The translations under genes were made by a program, and so were the position numbers. Shown here piece after piece: positions 17,286 to 32,420 of a stretch of 40,234 bases of DNA. Each line of letters starts with the position of its first letter. Within the stretch, counting starts at the first letter, position 1. The stretch is from an uncultured Chloracidobacterium sp. (GTDB lineage: Bacteria; Acidobacteriota; Blastocatellia; Pyrinomonadales; Pyrinomonadaceae): contig CAZWSK010000003.1 in the NCBI GenBank assembly GCA_964636445.1, forward strand, positions 1 through 40,234, given 5' to 3'. Below the pieces are notes generated by a model. That model did no database searches. It worked only from the letters and a program-made list of their open reading frames with translations, and was not told where the DNA came from.

Positions 17286-17344
17286 ATATCTCCTTGCGTG
17301 CGGAAAGCGCTGAGTCAATTCTGAGTTCGCCCCGCAACGGCGGC

Positions 17345-17360
17345 TATGACCCAGGTCACA
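17345..17360. promoter_or_regulatory. Candidate Crp/Fnr-family operator TATGACCCAGGTCACA (copy 1 of 3)
   Basis: Quasi-palindrome in the porin/crp divergent region. On the porin strand it is followed 21 nt later by the -10-like CAGAAT (17323-17318). Confidence 0.5.
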
Positions 17361-18061: not shown

Positions 18062-18077
18062 TATGAGGCAGGTCATA
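18062..18077. promoter_or_regulatory. Candidate Crp/Fnr-family operator TATGAGGCAGGTCATA (copy 2 of 3)
   Basis: Centre is 59.5 nt upstream of the ric ATG. The -10-like CACAAT lies 21 nt downstream. The SD AGGAGG precedes the ATG at 18129. Confidence 0.5.
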
Positions 18078-18128: not shown

Positions 18129-18869
18129 ATGAATCTAGACTTGCATACAAAAACAGTTCGCGAGATCGCACTTGCGATGCCGATAACAACGCGCGTTTTC
18201 GAGGAATACAAGATCGATTACTGCTGCCATGGCCATGTAAATTTTGACGAGGCATGTATTCACGCAGGGTTGGATCCCGACGCAATGGTGGAAAAGATCG
18301 ACGGCGTTGTGGGTGATCTCGGCAACCGGGAACTCGACTGGTTGCAGACGGCCGCTCTTGCCGAGGTTATCGATTATATTATCGACAAACACCACGCCTA
18401 TACCCGCGACGAGATGACGCAGTTGACGCCGTTGATGAACAAAGTGGCCACCCGTCATGGAGATCATCTGCCGTCCCTCATTGAGCTGGAAGCCACATTT
18501 CAGTCCCTGTGCGACGAATTATTCCCGCACATGATGAAGGAAGAAAACGTTCTTTTCCCGTACATCGAGGAGATGGAATCACGGCGTGATAAAAAGATGT
18601 CGCCGGCATTTCCGCCGTTCGCGACTGTTCGCAATCCCGTCAACATGATGTCGATCGAGCACGAACAGGCCGGCGAGCTGCTGGTCAAGATGCGTGAACT
18701 GACGGACAACTACACGCTGCCTGAATGGGCCTGTCCTAGTTTCACGGCACTGTATCATCGTATGGCCGAGCTAGAGGCCGACCTACACCAGCACATTCAT
18801 CTCGAGAACAATCTGCTCTTCCCGAAAGCAGTCGAGATGGAACAGGAACTGTTCGCAGCGGCGGTGTAG
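18129..18869 (+). CDS. ric: Iron-sulfur cluster repair di-iron protein (RIC; ScdA/YtfE family)
   Basis: ScdA_N-type N-terminus ITTRVFEEYKIDYCCHG. Hemerythrin-like His/Glu motifs (DKHHAYTRDE, HMMKEENVLFPYI, EHEQAGE, HIHLENNLLFP). Confidence 0.88.
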   Translation: MNLDLHTKTVREIALAMPITTRVFEEYKIDYCCHGHVNFDEACIHAGLDPDAMVEKIDGVVGDLGNRELDWLQTAALAEVIDYIIDKHHAYTRDEMTQLTPLMNKVATRHGDHLPSLIELEATFQSLCDELFPHMMKEENVLFPYIEEMESRRDKKMSPAFPPFATVRNPVNMMSIEHEQAGELLVKMRELTDNYTLPEWACPSFTALYHRMAELEADLHQHIHLENNLLFPKAVEMEQELFAAAV

Positions 18870-18872
18870 ACT

Positions 18873-19697
18873 ATGGCAATGTCCGCAACGATCTCAAAAC
18901 CCAGGCCCGTGCGGCGTGTTCGCCTCACGCAGATCCTACTTCCCACCGAGCATGGGTCCTGGGGCTTTTTGTTCGAACCGATCGTTGCCGGCCTTGCCAT
19001 TGCGTTCTCCCTCGGCAGTGTCTGGATAGCGGTTGCCGTGGTCGGGGCTTTTATGGCACGGCGGCCGCTCCAGGTGCTGATAAATGTGTGGCGTCGGGGT
19101 GATCCGAACAGCATAGCGCCTGTTGCTGCGAACTTCCTCGCCGCGTTCTCGATCCTGACAGTCGGCGGTGTTGTCGGCGCATACGTCTCGGCGGGGCCGC
19201 AAAGCCTCGTGCCGCTGGTGGCGGTATTGCCGCTCGCTCTCTTCCAGTTGTGGTACGAGATCTCGCGGCCCGGCCGTCAGCTGTTCGCAGAGATGTCGGG
19301 CGGCATCGTGATGGGCGCTACGGCCGCGGCGATGGTGATCGCGGCCGGGATGTCCTGGCCCATAGCCGCAGGGCTTTGGTTCATCTTTGCGGCACGTTTC
19401 CTCCCGTCGATCCTGTATGTTCGGAACCGCCTTGCCCTCGAGAAAGGGAAGCCGATGTCACACGCCATTCCGATCACCGCCCACATCGTCGCGCTCACCG
19501 GCGCGGCTGCGCTCGCGGGCGCCGGCATCATTCCGGTGCTGCCGGTCGCCGTATTCTTCCTGTTATTTCTTCGAGCCGCCGTCGGCCTCTCACCTCTGCG
19601 TCGACGCGTTAAGGCAAAGAGAATCGGCGTTTGGGAGGTTATCTATGGGGCATTATTGGTGGCTGTCGTTATCTTCTCGTACCATTCGCAGGCCTAA
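18873..19697 (+). CDS. YwiC-like integral membrane protein
   Basis: About 8 TM helices. The N-terminal LPTEHGSWGFLFEP motif is typical of the YwiC-like family. It starts 3 nt after the ric stop, so an operon is likely. Confidence 0.65.
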   Translation: MAMSATISKPRPVRRVRLTQILLPTEHGSWGFLFEPIVAGLAIAFSLGSVWIAVAVVGAFMARRPLQVLINVWRRGDPNSIAPVAANFLAAFSILTVGGVVGAYVSAGPQSLVPLVAVLPLALFQLWYEISRPGRQLFAEMSGGIVMGATAAAMVIAAGMSWPIAAGLWFIFAARFLPSILYVRNRLALEKGKPMSHAIPITAHIVALTGAAALAGAGIIPVLPVAVFFLLFLRAAVGLSPLRRRVKAKRIGVWEVIYGALLVAVVIFSYHSQA

Positions 19698-20332
19698 ACT
19701 CCTGCTCCACACTCGAACATCGTATCTTCTTCCTCCGCGAGGATCGGCAGAGCCGCCTCGCGGAGCTTATTTTTGTCCTTATCGGGCCCGACGCGTGCAA
19801 ATAGCGCCTCACCGGCAAGTTCGAGGTATTCGATCCCTGACCCGGCAAGCAGGGCGTTCATCTTTTCCGAATATTTCGACAGGTGGTCGTCGATGAACGC
19901 CGCGGCAGCGTCGGCCGTGATCTCGGCATTTTGGTCATCACCACACTCTCGTGCATACAGCTCTTTGAGCCGCATATAGCCCACGAAACCCGCCTCGACA
20001 GCGATGTGGTCGGGAACTTCGTTCGTTTTGGTCTTGAAACCAAACGCGTCGTAGTACGCAGAGAGCTCGGACAGCATCTGGCCGGGCTCGACCCAGCTGC
20101 GATAGCTGACCTCACGGCCCGGAGCCGGGCCGCCGGGACCGAATATCGAATGAAAAAATCCTTCCGACGCCTCTTTCTGTGCCGCTCTCGCTGCTTTTGA
20201 GAGCTCTTTGTCGTGTACTTGTTCGCCGAGCTGCGAGACCTGGCTGAACCAGTCGTCCTGCGGGCAATCGAACAACAGGCTGATCAAACGCCATTCGGCC
20301 GCCTCGTTCAATAGTTGATTAGCGTCTTTCAT
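19694..20332 (-). CDS. TorD/NarJ/DmsD-family redox-enzyme maturation chaperone (delta subunit)
   Basis: EWRLISLLFDCP and PDHIAVEAGFVGYM motifs are typical of the nitrate reductase delta / TorD family. It is the last gene of the operon. Confidence 0.78.
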   Translation of the reverse strand: MKDANQLLNEAAEWRLISLLFDCPQDDWFSQVSQLGEQVHDKELSKAARAAQKEASEGFFHSIFGPGGPAPGREVSYRSWVEPGQMLSELSAYYDAFGFKTKTNEVPDHIAVEAGFVGYMRLKELYARECGDDQNAEITADAAAAFIDDHLSKYSEKMNALLAGSGIEYLELAGEALFARVGPDKDKNKLREAALPILAEEEDTMFECGAGV

Positions 20333-20336
20333 ATTT

Positions 20337-20828
20337 TTAGGTATTCGCTGCCTTCAGAGCCTCGTCGCGTCGATGGACACGCGACATGACAGCGGCCTTT
20401 TCGTCTTTCGTCAAAGTCTCATCGAGCAGCGGATAGAGATGCTCAGCCTCGCGCCGGTCGTGGTGAGCGGATAGCCGCAGATAGAACGCCTCGTGGCCCA
20501 GGATCCGCAATACGTCAGCCTCGATATCAACAGCGTTGTTCAGAGCTGCAGTCGCGTTCTTGAGGACGTCCAGATGAGAGAGCATCTTCTTGTGCTCATC
20601 GAGATAGAGCTTAGGTGCGGCGACGGCAGGGAATTCACACCTTCCGGAATAGACCGGGATCAGCACCTCTTCCTCGTCCTTCATGTGCCGCATCAGCAGG
20701 GCTTCATAGCCCTCGAGCCGCTTGAGCGCGGAGGCGTGGTCGAGCCGCAGAAGAGCACGCTGGTGTTCGAGAAAGATAGCGTCTAGCTCATTGTGAACGC
20801 TCATTAAGCTTGCGATCGAAAGTGTCAT
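20337..20828 (-). CDS. Hemerythrin-like (HHE cation-binding) protein, 163 aa
   Basis: His/Glu patterns VHNELDAIFLEHQ, HMKDEEEVLIPVY, DEHKKM and HHDRREAEHLYPLL. Start set to the ATG at 20828, which forms an ATGA overlap with the upstream stop. Confidence 0.68.
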   Translation of the reverse strand: MTLSIASLMSVHNELDAIFLEHQRALLRLDHASALKRLEGYEALLMRHMKDEEEVLIPVYSGRCEFPAVAAPKLYLDEHKKMLSHLDVLKNATAALNNAVDIEADVLRILGHEAFYLRLSAHHDRREAEHLYPLLDETLTKDEKAAVMSRVHRRDEALKAANT

Positions 20829-21667
20829 TTCAACATCATCGGCACCCAACCGGTGCGCATTTTCCGTGCTCCGACCTCGCCGTGCGCCGCTTCCCAGACC
20901 GCAAACGCCGTCTGAGACGGCGTCGAAGACGAAAACGCCGCTGGCACCGGCCGTGAGATCACGACGGCCCAGCCGGTCTTCGTTCTTATGCCCTTGCCCT
21001 TGGACGTCGTAGCCGCAGCGGGCGTTAGCGTCCCGGGCCCTTCGGCTATCATGTCCTCGACCGGCTGCTCGCGTGGGCCCGAACGCCGATTGCCGACGGC
21101 CTTGGCGGGGGCATAACGCGCGGCTGCGTCGGCAAGCGCTTGCGGGTTTCCTTCGAGCGAGCTGGCCGTCGATGGATAATGATCGATGCTCGCATTCGGA
21201 TAAATGCTCTTAATGTCATCCGTAGCCCGGCCTTCGACGATGGCCTGCCAGTCCGCACGCCAGAACGCGATCTCGACGGTCTTCCCGGTCTCGCCCATCT
21301 GCGGAGCAGGAACGTTCGCCTCGATCTTTGCCGGGATCTGGACGGCACAGCCGTCGATAAAATGCTTCGGCCCCGGCATGTCATTCTGCGTGTCATCGAG
21401 CCATTCGAGCCTGAAAGCGATCTGCTGCCCGTCGGAGATGGCCTTGACCTGTACTTCCGCCGTCGAGGGCTGCATCACGCGCGGGTCGACGAGATCCTGC
21501 GGGATCATTTTCGAGATGTGCAGCGGCACATTTGCCCACACGCCCGCGTCCGGGTCGAGCGTGATCTCGGGAACCTGAGCGACCTGGACTTCCGCGGTCG
21601 CGACCTGTGTACGGCTGCACGCTGCGGCGAACAAACTAACCAAAACTACGAGTAATAACAGTCGCAT
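20825..21667 (-). CDS. Gamma subunit of a type II DMSO-reductase-family enzyme (EbdC/SerC/DdhC/NxrC-like heme-b domain), predicted lipoprotein
   Basis: Signal MRLLLLVVLVSLFAAAC with a lipobox-like FAAC. It sits directly after the FeS beta subunit. The C-terminal FAVWEAAHGEVGARKMRTGW resembles the EB_dh-domain terminus. Confidence 0.65.
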   Translation of the reverse strand: MRLLLLVVLVSLFAAACSRTQVATAEVQVAQVPEITLDPDAGVWANVPLHISKMIPQDLVDPRVMQPSTAEVQVKAISDGQQIAFRLEWLDDTQNDMPGPKHFIDGCAVQIPAKIEANVPAPQMGETGKTVEIAFWRADWQAIVEGRATDDIKSIYPNASIDHYPSTASSLEGNPQALADAAARYAPAKAVGNRRSGPREQPVEDMIAEGPGTLTPAAATTSKGKGIRTKTGWAVVISRPVPAAFSSSTPSQTAFAVWEAAHGEVGARKMRTGWVPMMLK

Positions 21668-21680
21668 AAATCCACTCTCC

Positions 21681-22810
<1,130 letters not shown>

Positions 22811-22823
<13 letters not shown>

Positions 22824-23290
22824 AGTTTGTTGTTCTCCGTAGTTGTGGGGTTAAGATCGGCGGCCCATTTGATGTGCCGGCCTTTGAAGATCGCCGCGAT
22901 GAGCAGCGTTGATGCGAAGATGCTGAATAATAGAACGACCGCATAGGCGAAGCGCGGAAGTTCGGCATCGACCTTTCCGCGAACGATGCCGACGACCGAC
23001 GCGATGCCTGCGAAGAGTACTGTCACGAGTGCTGCCGTCGCTATCAGCTTGTGTGTCTCGAGTGCTGCAGCCCGCGAGCCTTCAATCGTTGCCTTAACGG
23101 CCTGCCCGGCAAATTCGCCCGTGATCGCGACCGCTACAGTGAATAACGCCATCAGGGCGATGATCTTGAGCGCGAACCGTTTGCGGGGCGCACTCTGGGT
23201 TATGTAGCCCAACGCCAAGACGAGCGCGCCGATAACAAAACCGATCGCAGGGTAATAGTTGACCAAAAGATGTACTTTTAGGGCATCCAT
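22811..23290 (-). CDS. Small 4-TM membrane protein (DUF2231-like?) between the alpha and beta subunit genes
   Basis: Four hydrophobic helices. N-terminal [13 protein letters not shown] resembles the DUF2231 HPxxVHFPI motif. There is a 0-nt gap to the alpha stop and a 13-nt overlap with the beta start. Confidence 0.55.
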
Positions 23291-26200
23291 CTATTTCTTC
23301 TTGATAAATTCGCCGGCGAGATACTTCTTCATCGCGTCGGACTCGTTTCGCGGCCTGATGCCGAGCTTAACGGGACGCCATAGCGGCTCGTCTCCGATGC
23401 CGCCGGGCTCGGCTTTCGTGATCTTCACGAAGGCCTCACGCGGTGCTCCTGTCGGACAGTGGATATCGGCAGCAAATCCCTTGCCCATGCCCTGGCCGAA
23501 CATTCCTTTCCGCACCAGCGAATCGGTCATCCACGTCGGCTTGAGCCAGCCGCGTGTGGCGGACTGATGCGAGCCGGTGCGGAACATGGCCTGATAGTTC
23601 GTTCGCGGATTCTTCGCTAAGCCGTCCTTACGTTCCTTCGCTCCCTGCACAGAACCGGGCGTAGCGGCGTACATGTTGAACCACATTCGCGTCACGCCGC
23701 GCGGCGTGCCGGGATAGTAGCGTGCACGGCACATAAGGCGGGCGAACTCATAGTTCTTCTTGTCCTTCTGCCAACCCCGGAAAGGCCGATCCTCGGGGTC
23801 GCCGTCGATCCAAACGTAATCGCCGTCGTTTATGCCCAGCTCTCGCGCATCCGACGGGTTGATGTCCACATACCCCTCCGTCACGAACGGCTGTCGTTTG
23901 TCGTGGCGGTAAACGTCGCCGAACGGGCCAAACAGCATCGCGTTCATGTCCGTATCAATCGGCGTAGTATGAGCGCCGTGACGATACTTCGGCGTATGGA
24001 AAATGAACTTGTAATCGTCCTTGATCAGCGGATGCGGCTTGTTCTTGGCCTCGGCCCATGTGTAGACGACATTGCGGCCGCAACGCGTCTCGCACGACAG
24101 GTCGTCGCGCTTGACGCCGTAATCCTCAGGCTGAGCCGGCCGCAAGGCCTCGTGCGGGGCCGAGATGATGATGTTCGGCTCGTAGAATGTCGAGTCGACC
24201 GGTTCGCGGTGGACCGGCAGATTCTCGCCCGCCTCTATGAATTCGTCCTCTTCGCGATACATCTCGAGCCGGCCGCTCTTCGTGTACCACGGCGTATTGT
24301 CCTCGAGCTGGTCGTAACCGACGTTTTTAGGTGTTGTGCGACTGTTCATCAGCGCGGGGACGCCGTTCAGAGCTTTTTCGTGAAGCTCGTTGAAGTTGTA
24401 GCCTTTCGTGTTTGTCGAGTTATCGAGGATCCGCTGCAGGTAGATATCGGTCTTGCCCTCGCGGACATATTTCCAATAGTCGTTGAACCGCTGATCGCCC
24501 GTCAGGTCGGCGAGCTTGGATGCGACGGTCGCGAACACCTCGATGTCGCCCATCGTGTTGAAGATGCGCTCGATCGGCGTCTTGGGAAAAACGAGCAGGA
24601 ATGGATTCGTGACCGACGCGGTCATGTCGGGATGCTTCAATTCCGCCCATGAATCGACGCCAAAGACCACGTCCGCCCACTCACAGGATGTCGACCACCA
24701 CCATTCGTTGACGCAGATCATCTCGATCCGCGGCAACGCGTTGACCACCATGTTGTAGTGCCACTTTACGTTGCCAAGGATAGAATTGGCGTTAGCAAAC
24801 CAGAGTGACTTCGTGGGACACGGCATGTGCGATTTGCCTGTCAGCAGCCGGTTGCCAACACGGAGAGGGTGGTCCTCGTGGTTGTAATAATGTGCGGACT
24901 CAGCGTCCCAGTACTGTTTTGGCCGGGCCGGCTTCGCCGGGTCAAGCTCAATGTCAAACGGATTCTCAGCGATCCATTGCGGCGAGCCGTTGAACAAGGC
25001 GGTGCGGTAATTGCCCGCGTACGAGCCGACATTACCGCCGATCTTACCGACGTTTCCCGTCAGGGAAGCGAGTAGGAAGACGTCGCGGTCTTTGTTGTCG
25101 CTGTTAAAGAACTGGTTCGGGCCCATCCCGAGAGCGAACAGCGTCGTGCCGGGGTCCTTGGCAAAGTGACGTGCGAGCTTCTCGATAGCGGCCGCGGGTG
25201 CCCAGGTGAGTTCCTCGACCGTCTTCGGGTCAAAGTGCGCGGCATACTCCTTGACGAGATCGAAAACCGGACGGCACTTCACTTTGCTGCCGTCGGCGAG
25301 GGCGACCTCGACAACGCCTTCAAGCTGTGCGTCGCCCGCCTTGGAATTGTCGCCGACATCGTCGCGTGTCAACGCGACAGGGGCGCCTGTTTTCGTGTCC
25401 CAAACGACATAGTCGCCCCACTCGTTGCGGAGCTTTTCGGGAACTATATTCTTGATACCTTGTTGTATCGGCGGCGGCTCTTTCTCGCCTTCTTTGACGA
25501 TATAGGTCTGTTTGAGTTCGGCCGGGCCGCCGCCGAAAACCTCTGACGCCTTTAGATATTTGAGCGTGTCCATCCTGACGAGGATCGGCATATCCGTCCA
25601 TCGTCTGACGTAATCCTCGTCATAAAGCTTTTCCTGCATTATGACGTTTGCGAAGCCGAGTGCGACCGCCGGCGTCGTGCCGGGACGCACGACGACGACC
25701 TCGTCCGCCTTTGTCGCCGTCGCGGAATATTCGCATGCAATGACGACGACCTTTGTGCCTTTCATCCTCGCCTCGGTCAGCCAGTGTGCGTCGGGCATCT
25801 TGGTCGTTATCCAGTTCATTCCCCAGACGACGACTGTCTTAGCCTGTTCGACCGAGTTAAGATCGAATTCAACCGTCTGCTGGCCCGTGACCATCGTGTG
25901 GCCGGGCGGCAGGTCGGTGTGCCAGGAGTAATTGTCAAAGCCTCTCGCTCCGACAGCCTGATCGGGCCCGACGCCGCGGATCTTGCTGTCGAGCAGCGCC
26001 ATCGAATTTGCCATTCGGTACATACCGAACACTCGCGTGATGCCTAGCAGCGGCATACCGCCGCGGAACTTCATCACACGCGTTCCGATGCCGCGCGTCG
26101 CCTCGATCGTAGCCTCGTCGTAGTGCTGTTCCTTCAGGCGACGCATTCCTTCCTCGCCGGTGTAGGTCTCGGCGACATTCTTTAGAACCGCTGCGACGAT

Positions 26201-26728
26201 CACGGCGGCTTCGTCGTGAGACATCCGGACCCATTCGTCTCGGCCGCGGTTGAAGTATGTTTCGCTCGGTTTGCCGTCGTTGCCGCGCGGGAATCCGTCC
26301 TCGTACCACTTCTTAAATCCCGCACGGACCATCGTGCCGTTCACGCGGCGGTCGCCATAGAAGCGTCGCGTCAGAGCGAGTCCCTTTTGACAAACACGCG
26401 GGTCCCAGCGGTGCGAGGTGCCGTTGCCGAGCAGGTCGACGGCTTCGCCGTACTTCATCGTCGGCCCGATGCGCGTGATGACGCCCTGGCGTACGTGGGC
26501 GTTGAGGAGGCAGTTATGCGTGTCGTTCGGAGCACAGGTGAAGGTGTATCGCGAATCGTATTTCCAAAGGTCACGATATGCGTTTTCCCAGTCGCGATTC
26601 GGATAGACGGCGAGCGGATTGGTTATCGCGTCGAGGCCCCAGGCGTTTGTTGCCGACATCGCAAGGGCGCCGAAACCCGCGGCCGATACCCTCGCCATGA
26701 ACTCGCGTCTCGATAATTCGTTTTTCAT
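23291..26728 (-). CDS. Tat-exported molybdopterin catalytic subunit, NxrA / periplasmic NarG-like (type II DMSO reductase family), 1145 aa
   Basis: Twin-arginine signal [28 protein letters not shown]0 motif C65-X3-D69-X3-C73-X39-C113 ([11 protein letters not shown]...RVCQKG). Mo-ligand Asp context YSWHTD272LPPG aligns with E. coli NarG YDWYCDLPPASP. SD GAGGA lies before the ATG. Confidence 0.9.
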
Positions 26729-26737
26729 AACTGTCCT

Positions 26738-28399
26738 CTACTTCGCTTTTAATGACCGCAAATAAACCACGAGCGCTTCGATCTCAGACTGTGTCAGGAC
26801 GGGTCGAGTGGGCGAACCGTTCGCAAATCCCTGCATCACCGTTCCGCGTCGGCCGTTTGTAATGGTGCCGACCAGATACGTGTCAGTGGCCGCCGCGAGA
26901 AACGCAGGATTGCCAAGTGCCGGCCCTTCACCGCCGGCTCCGGCCTTGCCGTGGCAGCCCGAACAATTCGCGCTGAACAATCGCTCGCCGGTTGCCACAT
27001 CGCCGGCCGCCCATATCTGGGGCTTCGCGTCGGGTACGGCCTGAACGCCGCCGCCGAGAGCACGGATGTATGCGATCACGGAGCGGATCTCGTCGTCGTT
27101 CAGCCCGTTCTCCCGTTCACCCCACGCGAGCATCGGCCGCCCGGGGCGGCCGCTCTTGATGTTTGCTAACAGGAACTCATCCGATGCCAGAGCGAGAAAG
27201 TCCGGATTGGTGATCGACGGATTCGGCGCCAGGCCCGGATAACGGGCGCCTCCGCCATTCGCTGCGTGGCATGCCGCGCAGACCGCTGAATAGATCGTCG
27301 GACCGTCATTGGCAAACTCACGCTCACCGAAGCGCATTGCTCTCACTCGGTCTTTCGGCAAGAAGACGTCCGGCAGCGTCCGCCGCCGGAGGCTCAGCGT
27401 GTAGAGCGTCAGCAGATCGATCTCATCCTCGTTCAGGCCAAGTACGGGCATTTGCGATCCCGCAACAGTCGAGGCCGGCGATCGAAAATGCTGAGCCATC
27501 CAATTTGCCACGGAACGCTCGCCGGGAACGCGTGAAAAGTTGAGCTGATTCGGGTCTTTGAGGCCTGAGATCGAGAGGTTAAGACCTGCGTCACCGCCGA
27601 AACTTCCGATGGTGTGACAGCCGGCGCAGCCGAGAGAGTTGTACTGTGCCTTTGCCTCTATCAGCTTCGACGCACCCATTTGCGTGTCGAGAAAGATCTT
27701 GAGAGCGGCTTGGTCCTGCTCGCTGACCTCACGGAAGGAATTCTTCCATGCTCCGTCTGCTGCGGCCTGGTTCTTGGCCAAGTGTGCCGCGTACCATTCG
27801 GCGTTGTAGCCCTTCATTCCGACGACGGAGAGGTCGGGCCCTTCCATTCCCGTGATGTCGCCGCCCGGTCTTACCGTCCCCCCGCGGCCGTCGAGGCGGT
27901 GGCAGGCGTAGCAATCGAGGCGTTCGAAGGTCTTACGGGCATTGTCATACGTGGGCTTATTCGGGACATTCAGCGGTGTATGGCACGTACCGCAGCTCGC
28001 GTACGCATACTTGGCAGGCAGCATCGGCTCGGTCCAGAAATGAACGTTGCCGTGCGCATCGTCCCTCTCGGTCGCCTGTCCCTGGCCTCCGTGGCACGTC
28101 GTGCAGCCCATTTCGCTGACGGAATGGACCACCGGCTTATGCGCGGCACCAACCTTTAATGGGGAAGTGATCTGTTCGCCGGCGGCCATTCCGGTGTGGC
28201 AGGTGACGCAGCGGTCGGTGACCTTGAGATTCGGATTCACGATCTGCCGCAGCTTGACGTCGAGTGGCCCGTCCGCGGTCGAGGCGGTCCCCTGTATCTT
28301 GTGCCAGTCCTTGCGAAAATTCTCGCTGTACGCGGCCGCGACCAGCAGGACGAAAACCCCGAGGCTTGAGATCATCAATAGATACTTGTTCTTGTTCAT
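26738..28399 (-). CDS. Membrane-anchored heptaheme cytochrome c (4 multiheme-type plus 3 class-I-type domains)
   Basis: Seven CXXCH motifs: CVTCH, CTTCH, CGTCH, CYACH, CAGCH, CAACH and CSGCH. N-terminal TM helix YLLMISSLGVFVLLVAAAY. Confidence 0.88.
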   Translation of the reverse strand: MNKNKYLLMISSLGVFVLLVAAAYSENFRKDWHKIQGTASTADGPLDVKLRQIVNPNLKVTDRCVTCHTGMAAGEQITSPLKVGAAHKPVVHSVSEMGCTTCHGGQGQATERDDAHGNVHFWTEPMLPAKYAYASCGTCHTPLNVPNKPTYDNARKTFERLDCYACHRLDGRGGTVRPGGDITGMEGPDLSVVGMKGYNAEWYAAHLAKNQAAADGAWKNSFREVSEQDQAALKIFLDTQMGASKLIEAKAQYNSLGCAGCHTIGSFGGDAGLNLSISGLKDPNQLNFSRVPGERSVANWMAQHFRSPASTVAGSQMPVLGLNEDEIDLLTLYTLSLRRRTLPDVFLPKDRVRAMRFGEREFANDGPTIYSAVCAACHAANGGGARYPGLAPNPSITNPDFLALASDEFLLANIKSGRPGRPMLAWGERENGLNDDEIRSVIAYIRALGGGVQAVPDAKPQIWAAGDVATGERLFSANCSGCHGKAGAGGEGPALGNPAFLAAATDTYLVGTITNGRRGTVMQGFANGSPTRPVLTQSEIEALVVYLRSLKAK

Positions 28400-28400
28400 A

Positions 28401-29951
28401 TCAATGCCCCGGCCATGACGCGGGCGACCAGAAAAAGTCCCAGTTCGGACCGCGGAAATACGTGCCGATCACCGTCAGCACGATGAATCCCGCCAAAAAG
28501 CAGGTGAATAAAGCTAGTGCGCCCGCGCGCGTCGAGTTGTAACGCTTGACAGCCCAGATAGAGAACGCCGCGTAAATTGCCGTGATCACCGTTCCGGGAT
28601 TGACGAACGTGATCACCAACTGTGGTATGTCAGGGAACCACTCGCGAAGCCACCCAAACCGTATCGCGAACGCCTCGACCAGTATCGACGACGCGAAGCC
28701 GACCACGATCGACCATCTCACCAGCCGCCATCCGCCGGGCCCACCGAACCATTCGCCGGTGCCCTCTTTTTCGCGGTCCAAAAAAGGTATCAGTCCGAGT
28801 CCAACGATGCACAGCATAGGTATGCCGATCCCGCCCATGAAGGCAGAGAACGAGACGATCTCCTGAAGACCGAGGAAGTACCAAGGAGCTTTAGCAGGAT
28901 TCTCGGGCACAAGCGGATTTGCAAGTTCCTTTAATGGCGCGTCCGAAACCAATGCGAGCCCGACACAGATCAGTACCGTCAGCATGAGCACACCGAGCTC
29001 GGCGTAGAACAGGTGCGGCATTGACGGGACCGTGTGCTCAGGCCCCGAGTTCACGGCCGGCGTTTTACCTTTTACGATCGCCGCCAGCTGATATGTCTTT
29101 GCCGGCTGATCGGTAAACACGGGATAGAATTCCTTCGCTTCTTCGACCACACGCTCGTCCGCGTCTTCCGGTTTTGCAAGGCCGCCGTCCTTGCGAATCC
29201 GCCAAAAATGGACGGCCATCAGCCCCGCGAGCGTGAGCGGCAAGATCATCACATGTAACAAATAGAAGCGTATCAACGCCTCTTCGCCAACAACCTCAGA
29301 CCCGAGCAGGATCTCTCGCTGCAACCCGCCGATGTCCATGAATTCGGTTACGCCCATCGCGTCCGTGATCTCACGCGGGCTCTGCGCGATGTTCGCGCCG
29401 ATCGTGATCGCCCAGTATGCCAACTGGTCCCACGGCAGCAAATAACCTGTAAAGGACAACGCGAGTGTCGTCACCAACAATCCCCAGCCGATAAACCAGT
29501 TGAATTCCCGCGGATGCCGATACGCAGCTGTATAAAACGCCCGCGCCATGTGCAGTATCACTGCGACAACCATGACGTTAGCGGCCCAGCGGTGAATATT
29601 CCGCATGTACCGGCCCGTTGGCACGATAAAGTGAATGTCCTTGATCGACTGGTACGCCACGTCCGTGTACGGCTTGTAATAGAACATCAGCAGCACGCCG
29701 GTCACGAGTGTGATCAGGAAAGCCGCGGTCGTGATGATGCCGAGCCCCGCCGTAGTCGACCACCGCAATGACCACAGATGTGTCCGTACCGAGTGCAGGT
29801 GCAGAAAGACATTGCCGAATACGAACGACGAACGAGTCCTGTCCGTTTTCGGAGCGCCGCCGCGGAACATCGAGCGGTAAACGCGATACGGTATTGCCTT
29901 CAGGTTCGCCCAGAATTCGTTTAGTGCGGAATACGGTTGTTCAGCCTGCAT
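28401..29951 (-). CDS. Cytochrome b (fused b6 / subunit IV type with extra C-terminal helices) of a Rieske/cyt b complex
   Basis: Heme ligand pairs H-x13-H (IHRWAANVMVVAVILH) and H-x14-H (LHVMILPLTLAGLMAVH). PEWY-position motif APWYFLGLQE. 516 aa. Confidence 0.9.
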   Translation of the reverse strand: MQAEQPYSALNEFWANLKAIPYRVYRSMFRGGAPKTDRTRSSFVFGNVFLHLHSVRTHLWSLRWSTTAGLGIITTAAFLITLVTGVLLMFYYKPYTDVAYQSIKDIHFIVPTGRYMRNIHRWAANVMVVAVILHMARAFYTAAYRHPREFNWFIGWGLLVTTLALSFTGYLLPWDQLAYWAITIGANIAQSPREITDAMGVTEFMDIGGLQREILLGSEVVGEEALIRFYLLHVMILPLTLAGLMAVHFWRIRKDGGLAKPEDADERVVEEAKEFYPVFTDQPAKTYQLAAIVKGKTPAVNSGPEHTVPSMPHLFYAELGVLMLTVLICVGLALVSDAPLKELANPLVPENPAKAPWYFLGLQEIVSFSAFMGGIGIPMLCIVGLGLIPFLDREKEGTGEWFGGPGGWRLVRWSIVVGFASSILVEAFAIRFGWLREWFPDIPQLVITFVNPGTVITAIYAAFSIWAVKRYNSTRAGALALFTCFLAGFIVLTVIGTYFRGPNWDFFWSPASWPGH

Positions 29952-29953
29952 CG

Positions 29954-30433
29954 CTACACCTTTGTTCCTGATCTAACGGTCGTTCCCTCGTCGATATTGA
30001 CGACCGAGCCGTTCATGCTGCACTTGAGCCACGGCAGCGGTTTTGGGGCCGGGCCTTTGCGGACAGTGCCGTCCTTTTCAAAACCCGACCCGTGGCACGG
30101 GCAATCGAATCCCGCACCGCTCGCCTTCACGATGCATCCAAGATGCGTACATATCGTCGAGATCGCATAAACGCCTTCACCGTCGCGAAAAACCGCGACA
30201 TTGCGTCCCGGCGGTATGAACGCCTCGCCGTCGAGCAGCGTATCGGGCAGCGAGACATTGAACTTTTTCGACTGCGTCGCCGAGACCGCGGCTTTCGGCA
30301 GTTTGAGCATTCCGAACACAGAGAACACGAACGCCGCGATCATCGAGCCCAACGCTGCGAAGCCGAGAAAGTCGCGCCGCGGCATCGGCTCAGGATCAAA
30401 TCGCGATTGTTTCTTACCCGGATGTGTCGTCAT
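29954..30433 (-). CDS. Rieske [2Fe-2S] subunit with a Tat-type signal/anchor
   Basis: CTHLGC...CPCHGS Rieske boxes. PRRDFLGFAALG signal. Start set to the ATG at 30433, which forms an ATGA overlap with the upstream stop. Confidence 0.88.
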   Translation of the reverse strand: MTTHPGKKQSRFDPEPMPRRDFLGFAALGSMIAAFVFSVFGMLKLPKAAVSATQSKKFNVSLPDTLLDGEAFIPPGRNVAVFRDGEGVYAISTICTHLGCIVKASGAGFDCPCHGSGFEKDGTVRKGPAPKPLPWLKCSMNGSVVNIDEGTTVRSGTKV

Positions 30434-32343
30434 ACACAGCTCCAATTTGTCTGAAATGTCACCCGCTCCATGGAGATCGCATCGACCGGGCACCGCATCG
30501 CGCACAGGGCGCAGCGGATGCAGCGGTCTTCGTCCTTGAGGATCGCGGAGTTTGCGGCGATATCGGCGTCCTTGCCGAGCGCACGGTCAAACGCATCGCT
30601 CATCTCCTCGCCAAACTCGATCCGGTCCAGTGAGATGAGTTTTAAACATTCCGTCGGGCAAACATCCGCGCAGCCGCCGCAGAGCACGCAGCGCATTCCG
30701 TCGAAAACGGGCGTCACGCCGCAATCGAGACATCGCGATGCCTCGCGCATCGCCTCTTCTTTTGAATAGCCTATTTCTACGACATTCTCCGGATGTTCGA
30801 GTCGCTCCTCGGGCTCGATGGTGGGAACCTCGACGCGGCGGATGGATTCGTAGCCGAGCTCGCGGCGGTATCGTTCGAGGACCTTGTGTGCCTCGATCAC
30901 CTCGCTGCGCAGCTCGCGGCCTGTCAGGTATTGATAGACGGAACGCGCCGCCGATTTGCCGGAGGCGACTGCGTCGATCAGGAGGCGCGTTCCGTGGGCG
31001 AGATCGCCGGCGACAAAGACGCCATCAGCGGTGGTGGACAAGGTCTGTGGATCCACCTTTAACCAGTCACCGCGCATGCGCTCGACGTCTTTGCCGCCGG
31101 CCTCCAGGAATGTGAGTTTTGGTGCCTGGCCGACGGCGAGCAGCACGGTGTCGCAGGGAATGACACGCGTGTCGTCGTCATCGTAGAGCGGGGAAAACTT
31201 GCGTTCGTCGTCATATACGCGCAGGCACCGGCGAAAGGCAACGCCGGTTACGCGGCCATTCTCGTTCCTCACGATCTCGGTCGGGCCCCAGCCGTTGCTG
31301 CGGTCGATGCCTTCCTCGTCGCCCTCGACGATCTCGATAGTGTCGGCCGGCATCTCTTCGGCGTGTTCGAGGGAGACGAGATGAACCTTTGTCGTGCCGG
31401 CCAGGCGAGCCGCCGTCCGGGCGGTGTCAAAAGCGATCTGCCTTACCACCGATCTTGCGACATCGTAAGCGACATTTCCGCCGCCGATGACGACGACCTC
31501 ATCGCCGACCTCGACGGGCTCATTTAAGGAAACGTCCCGCAGCAGATCGACGCCGCCTATCACGCCCGGGCCGTCCTCGCCTTTCAGTCCGAGTGCTCGC
31601 GAGGATTTCGCCCCTACCGCGATGATGACGGCGGCATGATCCTCGCGAAGCTCGGCAAACGTAACATCGCGGCCAACCTCGACGCCGCAGCGTATGTCTG
31701 CCCCAAGAGCTTCAATGACCGCGACCTCGTTCGCGATCAGCTCTCGGGGCAGACGATACGCCGGCACGCCGACGGCGAGCATGCCCGCCGCGACGGGCTC
31801 GATCTCAAAAACGACCGGCTTGAATCCAAGGATCGCCAGGTCGTGTGCGGCGCTGAGTCCTGCCGGCCCGGCCCCGATAATGGCGATCTTCTCGCCATTA
31901 CCGGGCACCACGGCACGGTTGCGAGCGGCGCGGAGGAGTGCCGCTAATTCTTCTACATCGGCCGCGACGGGCGGGATGAAATCCGTTATCTCGTCGACGA
32001 CCTCGCTTACAGGACGTGCTTCGGGCCCGTATTGATCGCAGACAAACCGCTTCAGCGCACGGATCGCTATCGGGCGGTCCTGGCCGACGAACTTGCCGTC
32101 GTCGTTGACCTTCGGGATCTTTCCCCGGCGGCATTCGATCTCGCACGGTGCCCCGCAGATGCGTCCGCAGATCGATGCAAAGGGATTTGGGCCGCGGGCG
32201 ATGAGGTAAGCTTCGTTGAATCGTCCGTCGGCTATCGCCCTCACGTAACCGCGTGCATCTGTATGCACAGGGCAAGCCGCCTGGCACGAGATCAGGCCCT
32301 TGTGATACCCATCGCCCGGGATGTTGACCCTAAGCTGCTGCAT
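30430..32343 (-). CDS. GltD-like NAD(P)H-dependent FAD/FeS oxidoreductase with a C-terminal 2x[4Fe-4S] ferredoxin domain (cytoplasmic)
   Basis: N-terminal FeS region CQAACPVHTD...ICGRICGAPCEIEC. Dinucleotide folds IAIIGAGPAGLSAAHDL and VVVIGGGNVAYDVA. C-terminal CVLCGGCADVCP and CIRCALCAMRCP. No signal peptide. Start moved to the ATG at 32343 because the longer ORF would run into the operator at 32405-32420. Confidence 0.85.
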   Translation of the reverse strand: MQQLRVNIPGDGYHKGLISCQAACPVHTDARGYVRAIADGRFNEAYLIARGPNPFASICGRICGAPCEIECRRGKIPKVNDDGKFVGQDRPIAIRALKRFVCDQYGPEARPVSEVVDEITDFIPPVAADVEELAALLRAARNRAVVPGNGEKIAIIGAGPAGLSAAHDLAILGFKPVVFEIEPVAAGMLAVGVPAYRLPRELIANEVAVIEALGADIRCGVEVGRDVTFAELREDHAAVIIAVGAKSSRALGLKGEDGPGVIGGVDLLRDVSLNEPVEVGDEVVVIGGGNVAYDVARSVVRQIAFDTARTAARLAGTTKVHLVSLEHAEEMPADTIEIVEGDEEGIDRSNGWGPTEIVRNENGRVTGVAFRRCLRVYDDERKFSPLYDDDDTRVIPCDTVLLAVGQAPKLTFLEAGGKDVERMRGDWLKVDPQTLSTTADGVFVAGDLAHGTRLLIDAVASGKSAARSVYQYLTGRELRSEVIEAHKVLERYRRELGYESIRRVEVPTIEPEERLEHPENVVEIGYSKEEAMREASRCLDCGVTPVFDGMRCVLCGGCADVCPTECLKLISLDRIEFGEEMSDAFDRALGKDADIAANSAILKDEDRCIRCALCAMRCPVDAISMERVTFQTNWSCV

Positions 32344-32404: not shown

Positions 32405-32420
32405 TATGACTCAGGTCACA
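32405..32420. promoter_or_regulatory. Candidate Crp/Fnr-family operator TATGACTCAGGTCACA (copy 3 of 3), with a -10-like hexamer for the 10-gene operon
   Basis: On the minus strand the motif is followed 19 nt later by TATATC (32385-32380). The centre is about 69.5 nt upstream of the ATG at 32343. Confidence 0.5.

Follow-up and report, generated by a model that had tools for sequence, protein, structure and literature searches.

The window examined here (the whole 40,234-nucleotide stretch of DNA that was analyzed) comes from a soil-type Acidobacterium and also holds sugar-use genes. A run of ten consecutive genes occupies positions 19694-32343 of its minus strand. These genes, the putative operator in front of them and the neighboring genes are listed below (coordinates, strand, what the feature is, and the basis of the call).

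32405..32420, strand '.', candidate Crp/Fnr-family operator TATGACTCAGGTCACA (16-bp palindrome, perfect TRTGA-N6-TCAYA match)
30430..32343, strand -, GltD/NfnB-type FAD/NAD(P)-binding FeS flavoprotein (Pfam, PDB matches)
29954..30433, strand -, Rieske [2Fe-2S] protein (Pfam, PDB matches)
28401..29951, strand -, fused cytochrome b, 516 aa (Pfam, PDB, hydropathy, conservation)
26738..28399, strand -, membrane-anchored heptaheme cytochrome c (Pfam, seven CXXCH)
23291..26728, strand -, Tat-exported NxrA-type molybdopterin catalytic subunit, 1145 aa (Kuenenia NxrA match, motifs)
22811..23290, strand -, small four-helix membrane protein (four hydrophobic segments)
21681..22823, strand -, NxrB-type FeS subunit (7b04_A match, Fer4_11)
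20825..21667, strand -, NxrC-type heme b subunit, EB_dh fold (7b04_C match, Pfam EB_dh)
20337..20828, strand -, hemerythrin-like (HHE) protein (Pfam Hemerythrin, HHE motifs)
19694..20332, strand -, NarJ/TorD-type chaperone of the Mo subunit (Pfam Nitrate_red_del)
18873..19697, strand +, YwiC-like membrane protein (Pfam)
18129..18869, strand +, ScdA/YtfE-type di-iron 'repair of iron centres' protein (Pfam ScdA_N and Hemerythrin)
17410..18042, strand +, Crp/Fnr-family transcription factor (Pfam cNMP_binding and HTH_Crp_2)
15846..17318, strand -, porin-like outer-membrane beta-barrel protein (signal peptide, C-terminal ...AYSF)

Starts were placed at the ATG at 32343 for the GltD-like gene (within a longest ORF starting at 32403), at the ATG at 30433 for the Rieske gene (ORF from 30505) and at an internal ATG for the hemerythrin-like gene (ORF from 20849). 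Computed from the ORF coordinates, the junctions from the GltD-like to the TorD-like gene are -4, 2, 1, 9, 0, -13, 13, -4 and 4 nt. An earlier note, made from the sequence alone, had described the same ten genes and nine junction lengths, and both agree with the ORF coordinates; a Pfam profile search likewise bears out its domain call for every gene. Its reading of the genes as one unit holds as well, given junctions of -13 to +13 nt and collinearity in 80 out of 80 loci (see below), and neither a consensus promoter nor a convincing terminator was found inside the operon. As the note had stated, no NarI, NarK or cld is found among the ORFs of the window.

Judged by sequence similarity, and as proposed earlier, this is a periplasmic molybdoenzyme of the NxrA type. 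Its alpha subunit aligns over the full length with Kuenenia NxrA (7b04_B; E 1.5e-260) and scores 871 bits against it, versus 182 for PcrA, 134 for NarG and 133 for EbdA; close kinship to NarG or PcrA was rejected on these scores, and a hydrocarbon-type enzyme is ruled out by the same measure. As far as sequence similarity reaches, this excludes the placement of alpha outside the N-oxide enzymes that the note had named as refuting its reading. The subunit (Pfam Molybdopterin) keeps the C-x2-N-D-x3-C motif, the Mo-ligand Asp, the substrate Asn and the 3Cys/1Asp FS0 site (residues as named in PMC8387239), and carries the twin-arginine motif SRREFM; of 81 alpha-subunit sequences compared, 79 have an RR motif. 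The beta subunit (Pfam Fer4_11) has 7b04_A as its top PDB match (E 7.6e-115), and its Cys set, with 16 invariant Cys, suits three [4Fe-4S] clusters and one [3Fe-4S] cluster. The gamma subunit (Pfam EB_dh; top PDB match 7b04_C) has invariant heme b ligands Met124 and Lys269 and is probably a lipoprotein: its signal peptide ends in a Cys that the sampled relatives share. All three subunits are full-length relatives of Kuenenia NxrABC (PDB 7B04), by far the best solved matches.

The Rieske protein, with a single TM helix, carries a Tat motif (PRRDFL, containing RRDFL) and a CTHLGC...CPCHGSGF cluster box whose ligands are invariant; CPCHGS[GRH]F recurs in the relatives sampled. Its top PDB matches, 9rk4 and 9rk3, are the two Rieske proteins of Kuenenia R/b complexes, the closest solved ones being Kuste4569 and Kustd1480. 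We take 9rk3 as Kustd1480 because the description of a box without tyrosine in PMC12954380 fits that protein; its CPCHGSGF box is identical to the one found here, and since Kustd1480 was measured at +335 mV (PMC12954380), the box match suggests a similar potential for this Rieske protein. The cytochrome b (Pfam Cytochrome_B / Cytochrom_B_N_2; top PDB match b6; ExtP/ExtQ-like in NCBIfam, below cut-off) combines a b6-like four-helix part (heme ligands H-x13-H and H-x14-H) with a subunit-IV-like part of five helices by hydropathy and the Qo motif APWY, the same 4+5-helix layout as in the anammox complexes (PMC12954380). In contrast to the anammox models, which include the heme cn Cys, this Cys is absent here (a Gly aligns with b6 Cys35), so that the cytoplasmic-side path may differ from that of anammox. 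The protein holds six extra invariant His, and the invariant H51, H53, H58 and H313 should face the cytoplasm if the topology is that of b6f. The cytochrome c (Pfam Cytochrom_C plus multiheme families) has one N-terminal helix and, in agreement with the heptaheme assignment of the note, seven CXXCH motifs, i.e. four closely spaced N-terminal ones followed by three class-I cytochrome c domains; seven invariant heme motifs are found in 72 out of 72 relatives. The flavoprotein contains Fer4_20 (N-terminal), Pyr_redox_2 and two Fer4 matches, its C-terminal part being a 2x[4Fe-4S] ferredoxin domain; the Cys ligands of its four clusters are invariant among 62 sequences. Its top PDB matches are HylB/NfnA/NfnB/GltD-type chains (NCBIfam matches all fall below cut-offs), and it is predicted to be cytoplasmic, with no signal peptide or TM helix found.

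Gene order was compared across 80 related loci, and the same eight-gene core was found in the same order in all of them, far beyond chance: 55 contain the complete core, 24 are truncated by a contig end, and 1 is without NxrC/TorD. The TorD-like gene is found in every locus that extends that far, except one (L042). The carriers, many of them uncultured and a few in culture, span Acidobacteriota, Planctomycetota and Zixibacteria; among them are Thermopirellula anaerolimosa, which is cultured, and a MAG of Thermogutta. The genome database search proposed in the earlier note supports the operon as real and places it in at least three phyla, so it is not peculiar to the source genome. The ten genes are present as described here, but the conserved unit is the eight-gene core; the other two are lineage-specific, restricted to a Blastocatellia/Pyrinomonadaceae-like subset. 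The 4-TM gene, an insert between the alpha and beta genes with no Pfam or NCBIfam family found, occurs in 29 of the 80 loci (28-65% identity), and the hemerythrin-like gene in 19, with HHE motifs conserved. Across loci NxrA shares 75-94% and cytochrome b 66-95% identity, which, with the collinearity of the eight genes, suggests that the operon moves as a single block.

Both precedents named in the note are real, and neither joins all three modules. The operon's Rieske, cytochrome b, multiheme c and flavoprotein genes resemble those of anammox R/b-2 and R/b-3, in which R/b occurs with multiheme c and an NAD(P) oxidoreductase (PMC12954380); in haloarchaeal pNar, NarC co-purified with NarGH, but NarB and Orf7 did not (PMC7754194). 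The genome paper of Thermogutta terrifontis lists TorD, 'NarI', NarH, NarG and three 'cytochrome b/c1' genes, which were taken there for a cytoplasmic NarGHI close to complex III (PMC5673643); compared by this published gene list, the order is apparently identical to that of the operon.

A palindrome of one type stands in front of three genes in the window: TATGACTCAGGTCACA, 62 nt 5' of the first ATG of the operon; TATGAGGCAGGTCATA at 18062-18077, 52 nt 5' of the ScdA gene; and TATGACCCAGGTCACA at 17345-17360, 50 nt 5' of the Crp gene. In most Blastocatellia-type loci it is found about 75-120 nt 5' of the GltD-like gene. Judged by its motif, TATGACTCAGGTCACA probably serves the operon as a Crp/Fnr-family operator, and the Crp/Fnr-family factor is a candidate regulator of the three promoters; no sigma-70 consensus promoter and no canonical FNR box (TTGAT-N4-ATCAA) were found upstream of the operon. 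The Crp/Fnr gene is conserved in 23 loci, the ScdA gene adjoins the operon in 29, and the YwiC-like gene, convergent with the operon (4 nt overlap), is conserved beside it in 25. The porin-like gene (no Pfam family found), divergent from the Crp gene with the palindrome common to both, is present in 16. In 26 loci the operon is preceded, at a distance of 14 nt, by an Rrf2 gene. In Thermopirellula anaerolimosa it has qNor and two Rrf2 genes on one side and a complete set of Moco-synthesis genes on the other.

From this context we infer the direction of catalysis, nitrate respiration being most likely and favored over nitrite oxidation. Nitrate reduction is supported by the palindrome shared by the operon, the ScdA/RIC gene and the Crp gene and kept in related loci, and, in other lineages, by genes for Rrf2 regulators, qNor and Moco synthesis. 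It is also supported by the anaerobic growth of T. terrifontis with nitrate (PMC5673643), since the sole described Nar locus of this organism has the gene order of the operon.

We consider it rather probable that the product of the operon is a respiratory nitrate reductase that depends on menaquinol, has its active site in the periplasm and passes the low-potential electron to NAD(P)+, which is also how the note had read it (a quinol:nitrate complex with an NAD(P) branch). Quinol would be oxidized at the Qo site of the b6-type Rieske/cytochrome b module, and the high-potential electron would pass from the Rieske cluster to the membrane-anchored heptaheme cytochrome c, the Met/Lys heme b of the lipoprotein NxrC, the four NxrB FeS clusters, FS0 and the Mo-bisMGD of the Tat-exported NxrA-type subunit, where nitrate would be reduced to nitrite. 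Energy would be conserved by proton release at Qo, and neither NarI nor a nitrate/nitrite transporter would therefore be needed. The second quinol electron would cross the membrane via hemes bL and bH, exit on the cytoplasmic side, possibly via an extra His-ligated heme, and enter the GltD/NfnB-like flavoprotein, whose four FeS clusters would lead it to the FAD; in the preferred reading it would there reduce NAD(P)+. This branch is supported by the flavoprotein, which is related to NfnB/GltD, has Cys ligands for four clusters and lacks an export signal, and also by the closest solved Rieske proteins and their box, the 4+5-helix layout of cytochrome b and its invariant His. The scheme is that of the quinol bifurcation proposed for anammox R/b-2 / R/b-3, here with nitrate/nitrite (+420 mV) pulling. 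By our own arithmetic on the standard potentials in PMC12954380, electron flow from MKH2 (-70 mV) to nitrate (+420 mV) and NAD(P)+ (-320 mV) has a favorable drop of ~0.24 V, averaged per electron pair, which also speaks for the nitrate-reducing direction.

The need for quinol-derived NAD(P)H is not obvious, because the carriers are heterotrophs, and NAD(P)H could just as well be the electron donor. The flavoprotein would then be the input of an NAD(P)H:nitrate chain with an internal Q cycle (NAD(P)H to FAD, FeS clusters, the cytoplasmic-side hemes and a putative Qi site), an arrangement we regard as unlikely but worth keeping in mind. Its electron flow would be downhill throughout, its carriers are NAD(P)H-making organotrophs (cf. 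the sugar-use genes in the window), and the cofactor chain of the flavoprotein is direction-neutral. A proposal for chloroplasts, in which b6f-bound FNR supplies the Qn site during cyclic flow, also counts in its favor. However, NAD(P)H:quinone activity can do without a Qo reaction, the box match to a +335 mV Rieske protein is easier to reconcile with a bL of very low potential than with a standard menaquinol Q cycle, and the strict linkage of the flavoprotein gene to R/b modules beside acceptors of very high potential, seen here as in anammox (PMC12954380), would be left unexplained.

We further infer that the two halves are physically associated, and they could share a transcript without forming one complex. 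R/b would then be a general complex III serving soluble carriers, with NXR one client and no dedicated supercomplex, which we think quite improbable. A four-gene R/b module without NXR does exist elsewhere (L087), and the haloarchaeal co-purification of NarGH with NarC, not with NarB or Orf7, points the same way (PMC7754194). Against this, strict order and near-zero spacing are kept across phyla, the membrane-anchored cytochrome c and lipid-anchored NxrC hold both partners at the membrane, and other genomes of these phyla have several further general-use R/b complexes (PMC3509893).

The nitrite:quinone direction, which the note had left open, is disfavored by context and energetics. Thermopirellula anaerolimosa, one of the carriers, is described as an anaerobe, which counts against nitrite oxidation. 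An enzyme passing nitrite electrons through cytochrome c and the Rieske chain to the quinone pool or NAD(P)+, which would make the carriers unrecognized nitrite oxidizers or nitrite-scavenging mixotrophs, is more improbable still, even with an alpha subunit of the NXR type that Kuenenia uses and that runs both ways (PMC8387239), a JGI label 'nitrate reductase / nitrite oxidoreductase' on some homologues, and NXR homologues in non-nitrifiers discussed as possible novel nitrifiers (PMC9562985): menaquinone reduction by nitrite is strongly uphill, the Qo route would also use up a low-potential electron from NAD(P)H (nitrite plus NAD(P)H to menaquinol being uphill at standard potentials), the neighbors are Crp/Fnr, Rrf2, ScdA/RIC and qNor rather than CO2-fixation or oxidase genes, the operon is found in T. 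anaerolimosa and in Thermogutta, a nitrate respirer (PMC5673643), and lithoautotrophic nitrite oxidation has been doubted for such clusters in Armatimonadetes and Zixibacteria (PMC4821891, PMC3903129).

The operon is real, widespread and uncharacterized, and is assembled from known modules. For its carriers, low oxygen or N-oxides would probably switch it on, through the adjoining Crp/Fnr-family regulator in the Blastocatellia-type lineage and through Rrf2-type regulators in Bryobacterales and Planctomycetota.

Ten ORFs lie in a row on the minus strand between 19694 and 32343. For the start codons, the first ATG with a sensible junction was taken (flavoprotein 32343, Rieske protein 30433, hemerythrin-like protein 20828), and the nine junctions are -4, 2, 1, 9, 0, -13, 13, -4 and 4 nt. 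The earlier note had claimed a ten-gene minus-strand operon; the ORF coordinates bear this out with all nine junction values identical, and Pfam agrees with its domain calls gene by gene. NarI, NarK and cld, which it had reported as missing, were not found by Pfam among the ORFs of the window either, and we therefore consider the observation confirmed.

Genes of the operon in operon order, with Pfam domains
Minus strand, first gene: flavoprotein; Fer4_20, Pyr_redox_2 and two Fer4 domains
Minus strand: Rieske protein; Rieske domain
28401-29951, minus strand: cytochrome b; Cytochrome_B / Cytochrom_B_N_2
Minus strand, between cytochrome b and alpha: cytochrome c; multihaem and class-I cytochrome c domains
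Minus strand: alpha subunit; Molybdopterin
Minus strand, between alpha and beta: 4-TM protein of 159 aa; four hydrophobic segments, no family
Minus strand: beta subunit; Fer4_11
Minus strand: gamma subunit; EB_dh
Minus strand: hemerythrin-like protein; Hemerythrin
Minus strand: chaperone; Nitrate_red_del

A sequence scan found neither a signal nor a helix in the flavoprotein, beta subunit, hemerythrin-like protein and chaperone. No operon subunit reached a curated NCBIfam cut-off, so a curated family name can be assigned to none of them. Scans for sigma-70 promoters and intrinsic terminators inside the operon gave nothing above shuffled expectation; as such scans are uninformative for Acidobacteria, this is weakly consistent with transcription as a single unit. 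Rfam (at gathering thresholds) and a tRNA scan returned nothing in the window, including no Moco riboswitch. The TorD-like chaperone gene (minus strand) and the YwiC-like gene beyond it (plus strand) are convergent and overlap by 4 nt (19694-19697), so that there is no room for a terminator hairpin between the two transcription units.

The alpha subunit has thousands of homologues, the best 120 of which are 77–100% identical to it and belong, where named, to Pyrinomonadaceae, Chloracidobacterium, Blastocatellia, Bryobacteraceae, Pirellulales and Planctomycetota. Scanning one genome per GTDB species gave at least 584 stretches encoding a relative of alpha (ordinary NXRs are possibly included), and the best 80 of these at least 584 loci (75–94% identical) were compared by tblastn with the ten window proteins. 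The gene order is the same in all 80 loci, which makes the operon widespread. All eight core genes (flavoprotein, Rieske protein, cytochrome b, heptahaem cytochrome c, NxrA, NxrB, NxrC and chaperone) are found in 55 loci, 24 are interrupted by contig ends, and one is without NxrC and the chaperone. The 4-TM gene (29 of the 80 loci) and the hemerythrin gene (19 of the 80) were seen exclusively in a Blastocatellia-like subset. The earlier interpretation, a quinol:nitrate (or nitrite:quinone) complex with an NAD(P) branch, is supported, except that the conserved core consists of eight genes and not ten, the 4-TM and hemerythrin genes being lineage-specific.

In loci from Thermoguttaceae, Phycisphaerae, Planctomycetaceae and Zixibacteria, NxrA is 75–78% and cytochrome b 73–78% identical to the proteins of the window. 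Identities of 73–78% across phyla fit inter-phylum transfer of the whole block, in which the Rieske/cytochrome b-flavoprotein-multihaem unit has apparently moved together with the NXR. Two cases deserve mention. The MAG of Pyrinomonadaceae bacterium CA_2019_TPIn_63 has the complete operon twice, on separate contigs (L023 and L029 in our set), and the two NxrA proteins are 85% and 84% identical to that of the window. L042 is the only one of the 80 loci without a detected NxrC or chaperone, despite 8.8 kb of sequence after NxrB; its record is labelled 'uncultured Clostridia', which is probably a binning or labelling problem.

The catalytic subunits resemble nitrite oxidoreductase (NXR) over their full length. 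The best PDB match of alpha is Kuenenia stuttgartiensis NxrA (7b04_B, E 1.5e-260, 871 bits, residues 5-1143), followed at a distance by PcrA (182 bits), E. coli NarG (134 bits) and the ethylbenzene dehydrogenase subunit EbdA (133 bits). The best matches of beta and gamma are the other two chains of the same structure (7b04_A, E 7.6e-115; 7b04_C, E 1.1e-16). Key residues of Kuenenia NxrA are Asp275 on the Mo, Asn70 facing the substrate, and an FS0 site of three Cys (including Cys67) and Asp71 (PMC8387239). In our alignment, CAPNDTHNC of alpha corresponds to Kuenenia CSPNDTHAC and WHTD to WHGD; the Mo-ligand Asp, the substrate Asn and the 3Cys/1Asp FS0 site are all kept, and are invariant in 81 sequences. 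The beta subunit has 16 invariant Cys and keeps those for three [4Fe-4S] clusters and one [3Fe-4S] cluster. In gamma, Met124 and Lys269, the counterparts of the Met/Lys ligands of the high-potential haem b in Kuenenia NXR, are invariant; its N-terminal signal peptide ends in a Cys, and gamma is probably a lipoprotein. Alpha carries a twin-arginine motif (SRREFM, residues 6-11); of 81 sequences of the family, 79 have an RR motif.

With NCBIfam models, alpha scored 142 bits against TIGR01580 (narG; cut-off 1084) and 308 bits against TIGR03479 (type II DMSO-reductase subfamily; cut-off 985). A respiratory NarGHI (nNar) was rejected on the narG score, far below the cut-off, on a window without NarI and on the Tat signal of alpha. 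A perchlorate/chlorate, selenate, DMS or ethylbenzene enzyme was rejected on the bit scores of PcrA and EbdA relative to NxrA and on the missed TIGR03479 cut-off, and no cld-like family recurs in the flanks of the 80 loci. The earlier note had named a placing of alpha among hydrocarbon, DMS or selenate enzymes as grounds for refutation; as far as sequence similarity goes, the PDB scores speak against such a placing. Given the 7B04 matches of all three subunits, the kept residues and the missed NCBIfam cut-offs, the molybdoenzyme is by its sequence a periplasmic NXR-type enzyme, and not a NarGHI or a chlorate, selenate or hydrocarbon enzyme.

The other half of the operon encodes a quinol-oxidising module (a Rieske/cytochrome b, or R/b, complex with a flavoprotein and a multihaem cytochrome c). 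Cytochrome b is a single protein of 516 aa, whose first half is b6-like (b6 is its best PDB match) and has the haem ligands H120/H134 (H-x13-H) and H233/H248 (H-x14-H), all invariant. The second half, after residue 310, has five hydrophobic helices, is subunit-IV-like and contains the Qo motif APWY. At the position of spinach b6 Cys35 (before Leu36), tested for the Cys ahead of helix A that binds haem cn covalently, there is Gly69, and a conserved Cys at this position is absent from the family. Six non-canonical His (H51, H53, H58, H107, H313 and H516, the last residue) are invariant in 68 sequences, and might bind one or more additional haems or contact cytochrome c or the flavoprotein. By b6f topology, H51, H53, H58 and H313 should be on the cytoplasmic side; AlphaFold3 models of the anammox complexes place an extra b-type haem between bN and the first FeS cluster, and by analogy we infer that these four residues are candidate ligands of such a haem.

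Seven CXXCH motifs make the cytochrome c a heptahaem protein, and a single N-terminal helix anchors it in the membrane. The Rieske protein has a twin-arginine motif (PRRDFL), and its two best PDB matches are the Kuenenia R/b Rieske structures 9rk4 (E 4e-15) and 9rk3 (E 2e-14). Its cluster box reads CPCHGSGF, exactly as in 9rk3, an anammox Rieske structure with the box serine and without the tyrosine. Kustd1480, whose description fits 9rk3, was measured at +335 mV (PMC12954380), and from the box motif the Rieske protein of the window is predicted to have a high-potential signature. The flavoprotein is of the NfnB/GltD/HylB type by its PDB matches and has no signal peptide; the Cys for two N-terminal and two C-terminal clusters are invariant, and its gene comes first in the operon wherever a locus extends far enough.

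Relatives of the quinol-oxidising module also occur in other settings. A search of representatives with cytochrome b recovered no named anammox cytochrome b and gave three informative contexts, most of the distant representatives being on 2–3 kb contigs. One locus (L087, 7692-14366) has a flavoprotein-Rieske-cytochrome b-multihaem c cassette without an NXR, its flavoprotein 42% and its cytochrome b 50% identical to those of the window; a CytoC_RC-like protein and another multihaem cytochrome come after it, and a sigma-54 two-component system before it. This R/b module without NXR indicates that the operon is a fusion of two portable cassettes. Another locus (L086, 7843-11300) has genes for a cytochrome b (41% identical), a Rieske protein, a cytochrome c/cupredoxin and an EB_dh-domain protein on a 12.9-kb contig where no molybdoenzyme was found; an NxrC-like haem b protein may work with R/b complexes elsewhere too.

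Among characterized enzymes, Kuenenia NxrABC (PDB 7B04; kustd1700, 1703 and 1704) is homologous over the full length to all three subunits of the enzyme in the window, and likewise has Tat export, an Asp on the Mo, the substrate-facing Asn, a 3Cys/1Asp FS0 site, and a Met/Lys haem b in an EB_dh gamma subunit. It differs in that the genes in the window are directly behind a Rieske/cytochrome b/multihaem c/flavoprotein module, that gamma is probably a lipoprotein, and that neither the NXR-T tubule protein nor the other cytochrome genes of kustd1699-1713 were seen here; the host of the window is a heterotroph without an anammoxosome. For the quinol-oxidising half, the closest systems are anammox R/b-3 (Kuste4569-4574) and R/b-2 (Kustd1480-1485), which have a Rieske protein of the same subfamily and, as in the operon, a cytochrome b that is b6-like and whose subunit-IV part has five helices, a multihaem cytochrome c that replaces cytochrome f or c1, and an NAD(P) oxidoreductase in the cytoplasm that contains FAD and four FeS clusters; their proposed partner is a very high-potential N-oxide reductase (PMC12954380). 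Our cytochrome b and flavoprotein are likened to the anammox counterparts (Kuste4570-4572 and Kustd1481-1483) by published description, and the Cys of the flavoprotein fit the 'four [4/3Fe4S] clusters' that the anammox models put between membrane and FAD. In contrast, an NXR-type Mo enzyme takes the place of the HAO-like octahaem protein as partner here, subunit IV is fused to cytochrome b, the haem cn Cys is absent, and there are seven haems instead of six or eight (PMC12954380).

The haloarchaeal Rieske/cytb-pNar cluster (narB-narC-orf-narG-narH-orf7-narJ) matches the operon in order (Rieske, cytochrome b, Tat-exported alpha, beta, a soluble haem b protein, chaperone), also lacks NarI, and has a Q-cycle-coupled, outward-facing nitrate reductase as its proposed function (PMC3509893, PMC7754194); NarC alone co-purified with NarGH (PMC7754194). 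Unlike the operon, it has neither a c-type cytochrome, so that a periplasmic cytochrome b would be its only shuttle, nor a flavoprotein; its cytochrome b groups with those of Actinobacteria and Thermus, its Rieske protein is predicted to be of low potential (PMC3509893), and its alpha is named NarG, whereas alpha of the window resembles NxrA far more than it does E. coli NarG. A Rieske/cytochrome b pair with multihaem cytochromes c was proposed to feed a periplasmic nitrate or nitrite reductase both in Caldithrix abyssi, with its Nap-Rieske/cytb-eHao cluster (PMC5317091), and in Methanoperedens, where the Nar and the R/b cluster are separate and not adjacent (PMC4683180). In these two the catalytic enzyme is NapA or an archaeal NarG, and no NAD(P) flavoprotein was described. 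NXR-like clusters were also reported from Zixibacteria RBG-1 (PMC3903129) and an Armatimonadetes MAG (PMC4821891), and in both cases the authors doubted a nitrifying role.

The earlier note knew of no described system with all three modules, and here one correction applies: a partial prior sighting exists in the genome paper of Thermogutta terrifontis R1, an organism that respires nitrate. The published order of THTE_1506-1512 is TorD, 'NarI', NarH, NarG and three complex III genes (PMC5673643). It was read as a cytoplasmic NarGHI with complex III genes merely nearby, which might reflect a role of complex III in anaerobic growth with nitrate; the flavoprotein and the affinity to NXR went unmentioned (PMC5673643). 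Homology searches for the R1 proteins surfaced only Thermopirellula anaerolimosa and a 'Thermogutta sp.' MAG, the latter with exactly the operon studied here, the flavoprotein and an Rrf2 gene included. Since this Thermogutta MAG has the operon, the R1 nitrate reductase, which we know from its published order, is very likely a member of the same family, and would then have been annotated as cytoplasmic NarGHI by default.

Three conserved genes converge on the end of the operon, and a perfect 16-bp palindrome (TRTGA-N6-TCAYA) is found at exactly three places in the operon part of the window:

17410-18042, converging on the operon end: Crp/Fnr-family regulator
18129-18869, converging on the operon end: ScdA/YtfE 'repair of iron centres' protein
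18873-19697, converging on the operon end: YwiC-like membrane protein
32405-32420: palindrome, 62 nt upstream of the operon
18062-18077: palindrome, 52 nt upstream of scdA
17345-17360: palindrome, between the Crp gene and a divergent porin-like gene

The Crp/Fnr, ScdA and YwiC-like genes are beside the operon in 23–29 loci, and most Blastocatellia-type loci have the same palindrome about 75–120 nt upstream of the first gene. When one mismatch was allowed, the whole window gave 5 matches (1.8 expected), the remaining two belonging to a different tandem site at 12288/12311. The canonical FNR box (TTGAT-N4-ATCAA, up to 2 mismatches) was also tried and rejected in favour of this palindrome (16 matches versus 12.7 expected, none upstream of the operon). 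As the palindrome is common to the operon, scdA and the Crp gene and is kept in relatives, we read the three sites as one putative regulon under a Crp/Fnr-type factor.

The product of the porin-like gene (15846-17318) is an outer-membrane beta-barrel with an N-terminal coiled-coil and without a Pfam match. The gene diverges from the Crp gene, with the palindrome in common, accompanies the operon in 16 loci and could encode a nitrate/nitrite anion channel. The tandem site consists of two perfect copies of another palindrome, TGTGAAACGTTTCACA (12288-12303 and 12311-12326, 7 nt apart), between a glycogen-debranching-type gene (10102-12063, minus strand) and an ECF sigma gene (12464-13036, plus strand) with a Ser/Thr kinase-TPR gene (13109-15844, plus strand) behind it; the site is probably the operator of another Crp-like or an unrelated regulator. 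On the other side, divergent from the operon, are two tandem paralogous genes (32518-34212; 283 and 280 aa) with only weak VanY-like similarity, which are not conserved next to the operon in the other loci.

In 26 other loci an Rrf2-family gene is 14 nt upstream of the flavoprotein gene, and MoaA, MobA and MoeA genes are recurrent neighbours of the operon. The cultured planctomycete Thermopirellula anaerolimosa has the eight genes, with qNor, an Rrf2-hemerythrin fusion and Rrf2 on one side and a complete Moco-synthesis set on the other. In denitrifiers and enterobacteria, RIC proteins, Rrf2/NsrR-type and Crp/Fnr-type regulators and qNor usually accompany enzymes that produce nitrite and NO at low oxygen; they are not known as companions of nitrite oxidation. 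The neighbouring genes and the palindrome thus argue for nitrate reduction over nitrite oxidation, as far as sequence can tell.

With moderate confidence, we take the function to be periplasmic, energy-conserving nitrate respiration. The quinol:nitrate complex with a periplasmic active site that the earlier note had proposed gains support from the Tat signal, the NXR-type residues and the genomic context. The operon would encode a menaquinol:nitrate oxidoreductase, that is, an R/b complex in which a seven-haem wire leading to the NXR serves as 'cytochrome c1'. Quinol oxidation at Qo would release protons outside, where nitrate would be reduced too, so that a nitrate/nitrite antiporter and NarI would not be needed. 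The haloarchaeal pNar was proposed to work with the same outside-facing Q-cycle logic (PMC3509893, PMC7754194).

The cytoplasmic flavoprotein is strictly conserved and therefore needs an explanation of its own. For its role we favour, by analogy, quinol bifurcation as in the scheme of Kartal et al. for anammox R/b, in the form in which PMC12954380 relays it. The low-potential electron would pass from Qo via bL, bH and (an extra haem) to the four FeS clusters, FAD and NAD(P)+, while the other menaquinol electron would pass via the haem c chain to the NXR and periplasmic nitrate. With potentials of about -70 mV for MK, -320 mV for NAD(P) (PMC12954380) and +420 mV for nitrate/nitrite (PMC8387239), the gain is about 0.49 V for one electron and the cost about 0.25 V for the other, which makes the coupled reaction exergonic; by the same potentials the reverse, nitrite oxidation through the complex, is endergonic and would consume NAD(P)H. 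A serious rival is that the flavoprotein is a plain NAD(P)H electron input. Mechanistically, an NAD(P)H:quinone activity could do without Qo; nevertheless, the flavoprotein gene is tightly linked to R/b modules beside very oxidising N-oxide reductases, both here and in Kuenenia R/b-3, and the Rieske box matches that of a +335 mV protein in a menaquinone organism. For these reasons we prefer bifurcation to NAD(P)H input. That the operon as a whole is a quinol-bifurcating nitrate reductase, with one electron going to nitrate and the other reducing NAD(P)+ across the membrane, we put forward as a tentative possibility.

Each module is known: the operon is real, conserved and widespread, but built from familiar parts. 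We found no description of the three-module operon in the open-access PMC and bioRxiv literature, the nearest being the one-paragraph Thermogutta annotation. Metagenome surveys of soil, groundwater and wastewater routinely count genes of this clade as 'nxrA/nxrB' or 'narG/narH'. If the enzyme is a heterotrophic nitrate reductase, such surveys overestimate the nitrite-oxidation potential of Acidobacteriota and Planctomycetota, and overlook a common route from nitrate to nitrite, together with a supply of nitrite to anammox.

Anammox R/b complexes with a multihaem c and an NAD(P) subunit are known from models, complexome data and Rieske structures, and the proposal that they bifurcate to NAD(P)+ draws its support from models and from measurements on isolated Rieske subunits (PMC12954380). 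To our knowledge, anammox bacteria are neither in pure culture nor genetically tractable. Cultured heterotrophs (Thermopirellula and probably Thermogutta) have this module together with a partner whose substrate, nitrate, is easily assayed, which would make bifurcation directly testable. The R/b-flavoprotein-multihaem unit emerges as a portable cassette with different periplasmic partners (an HAO-like protein in anammox, c-type cytochromes in L087). If bifurcation is true, the long-hypothesised R/b complex that produces NAD(P)H would have its first example outside anammox bacteria in this operon, and would be present in many species of Acidobacteriota and Planctomycetota, including culturable ones.
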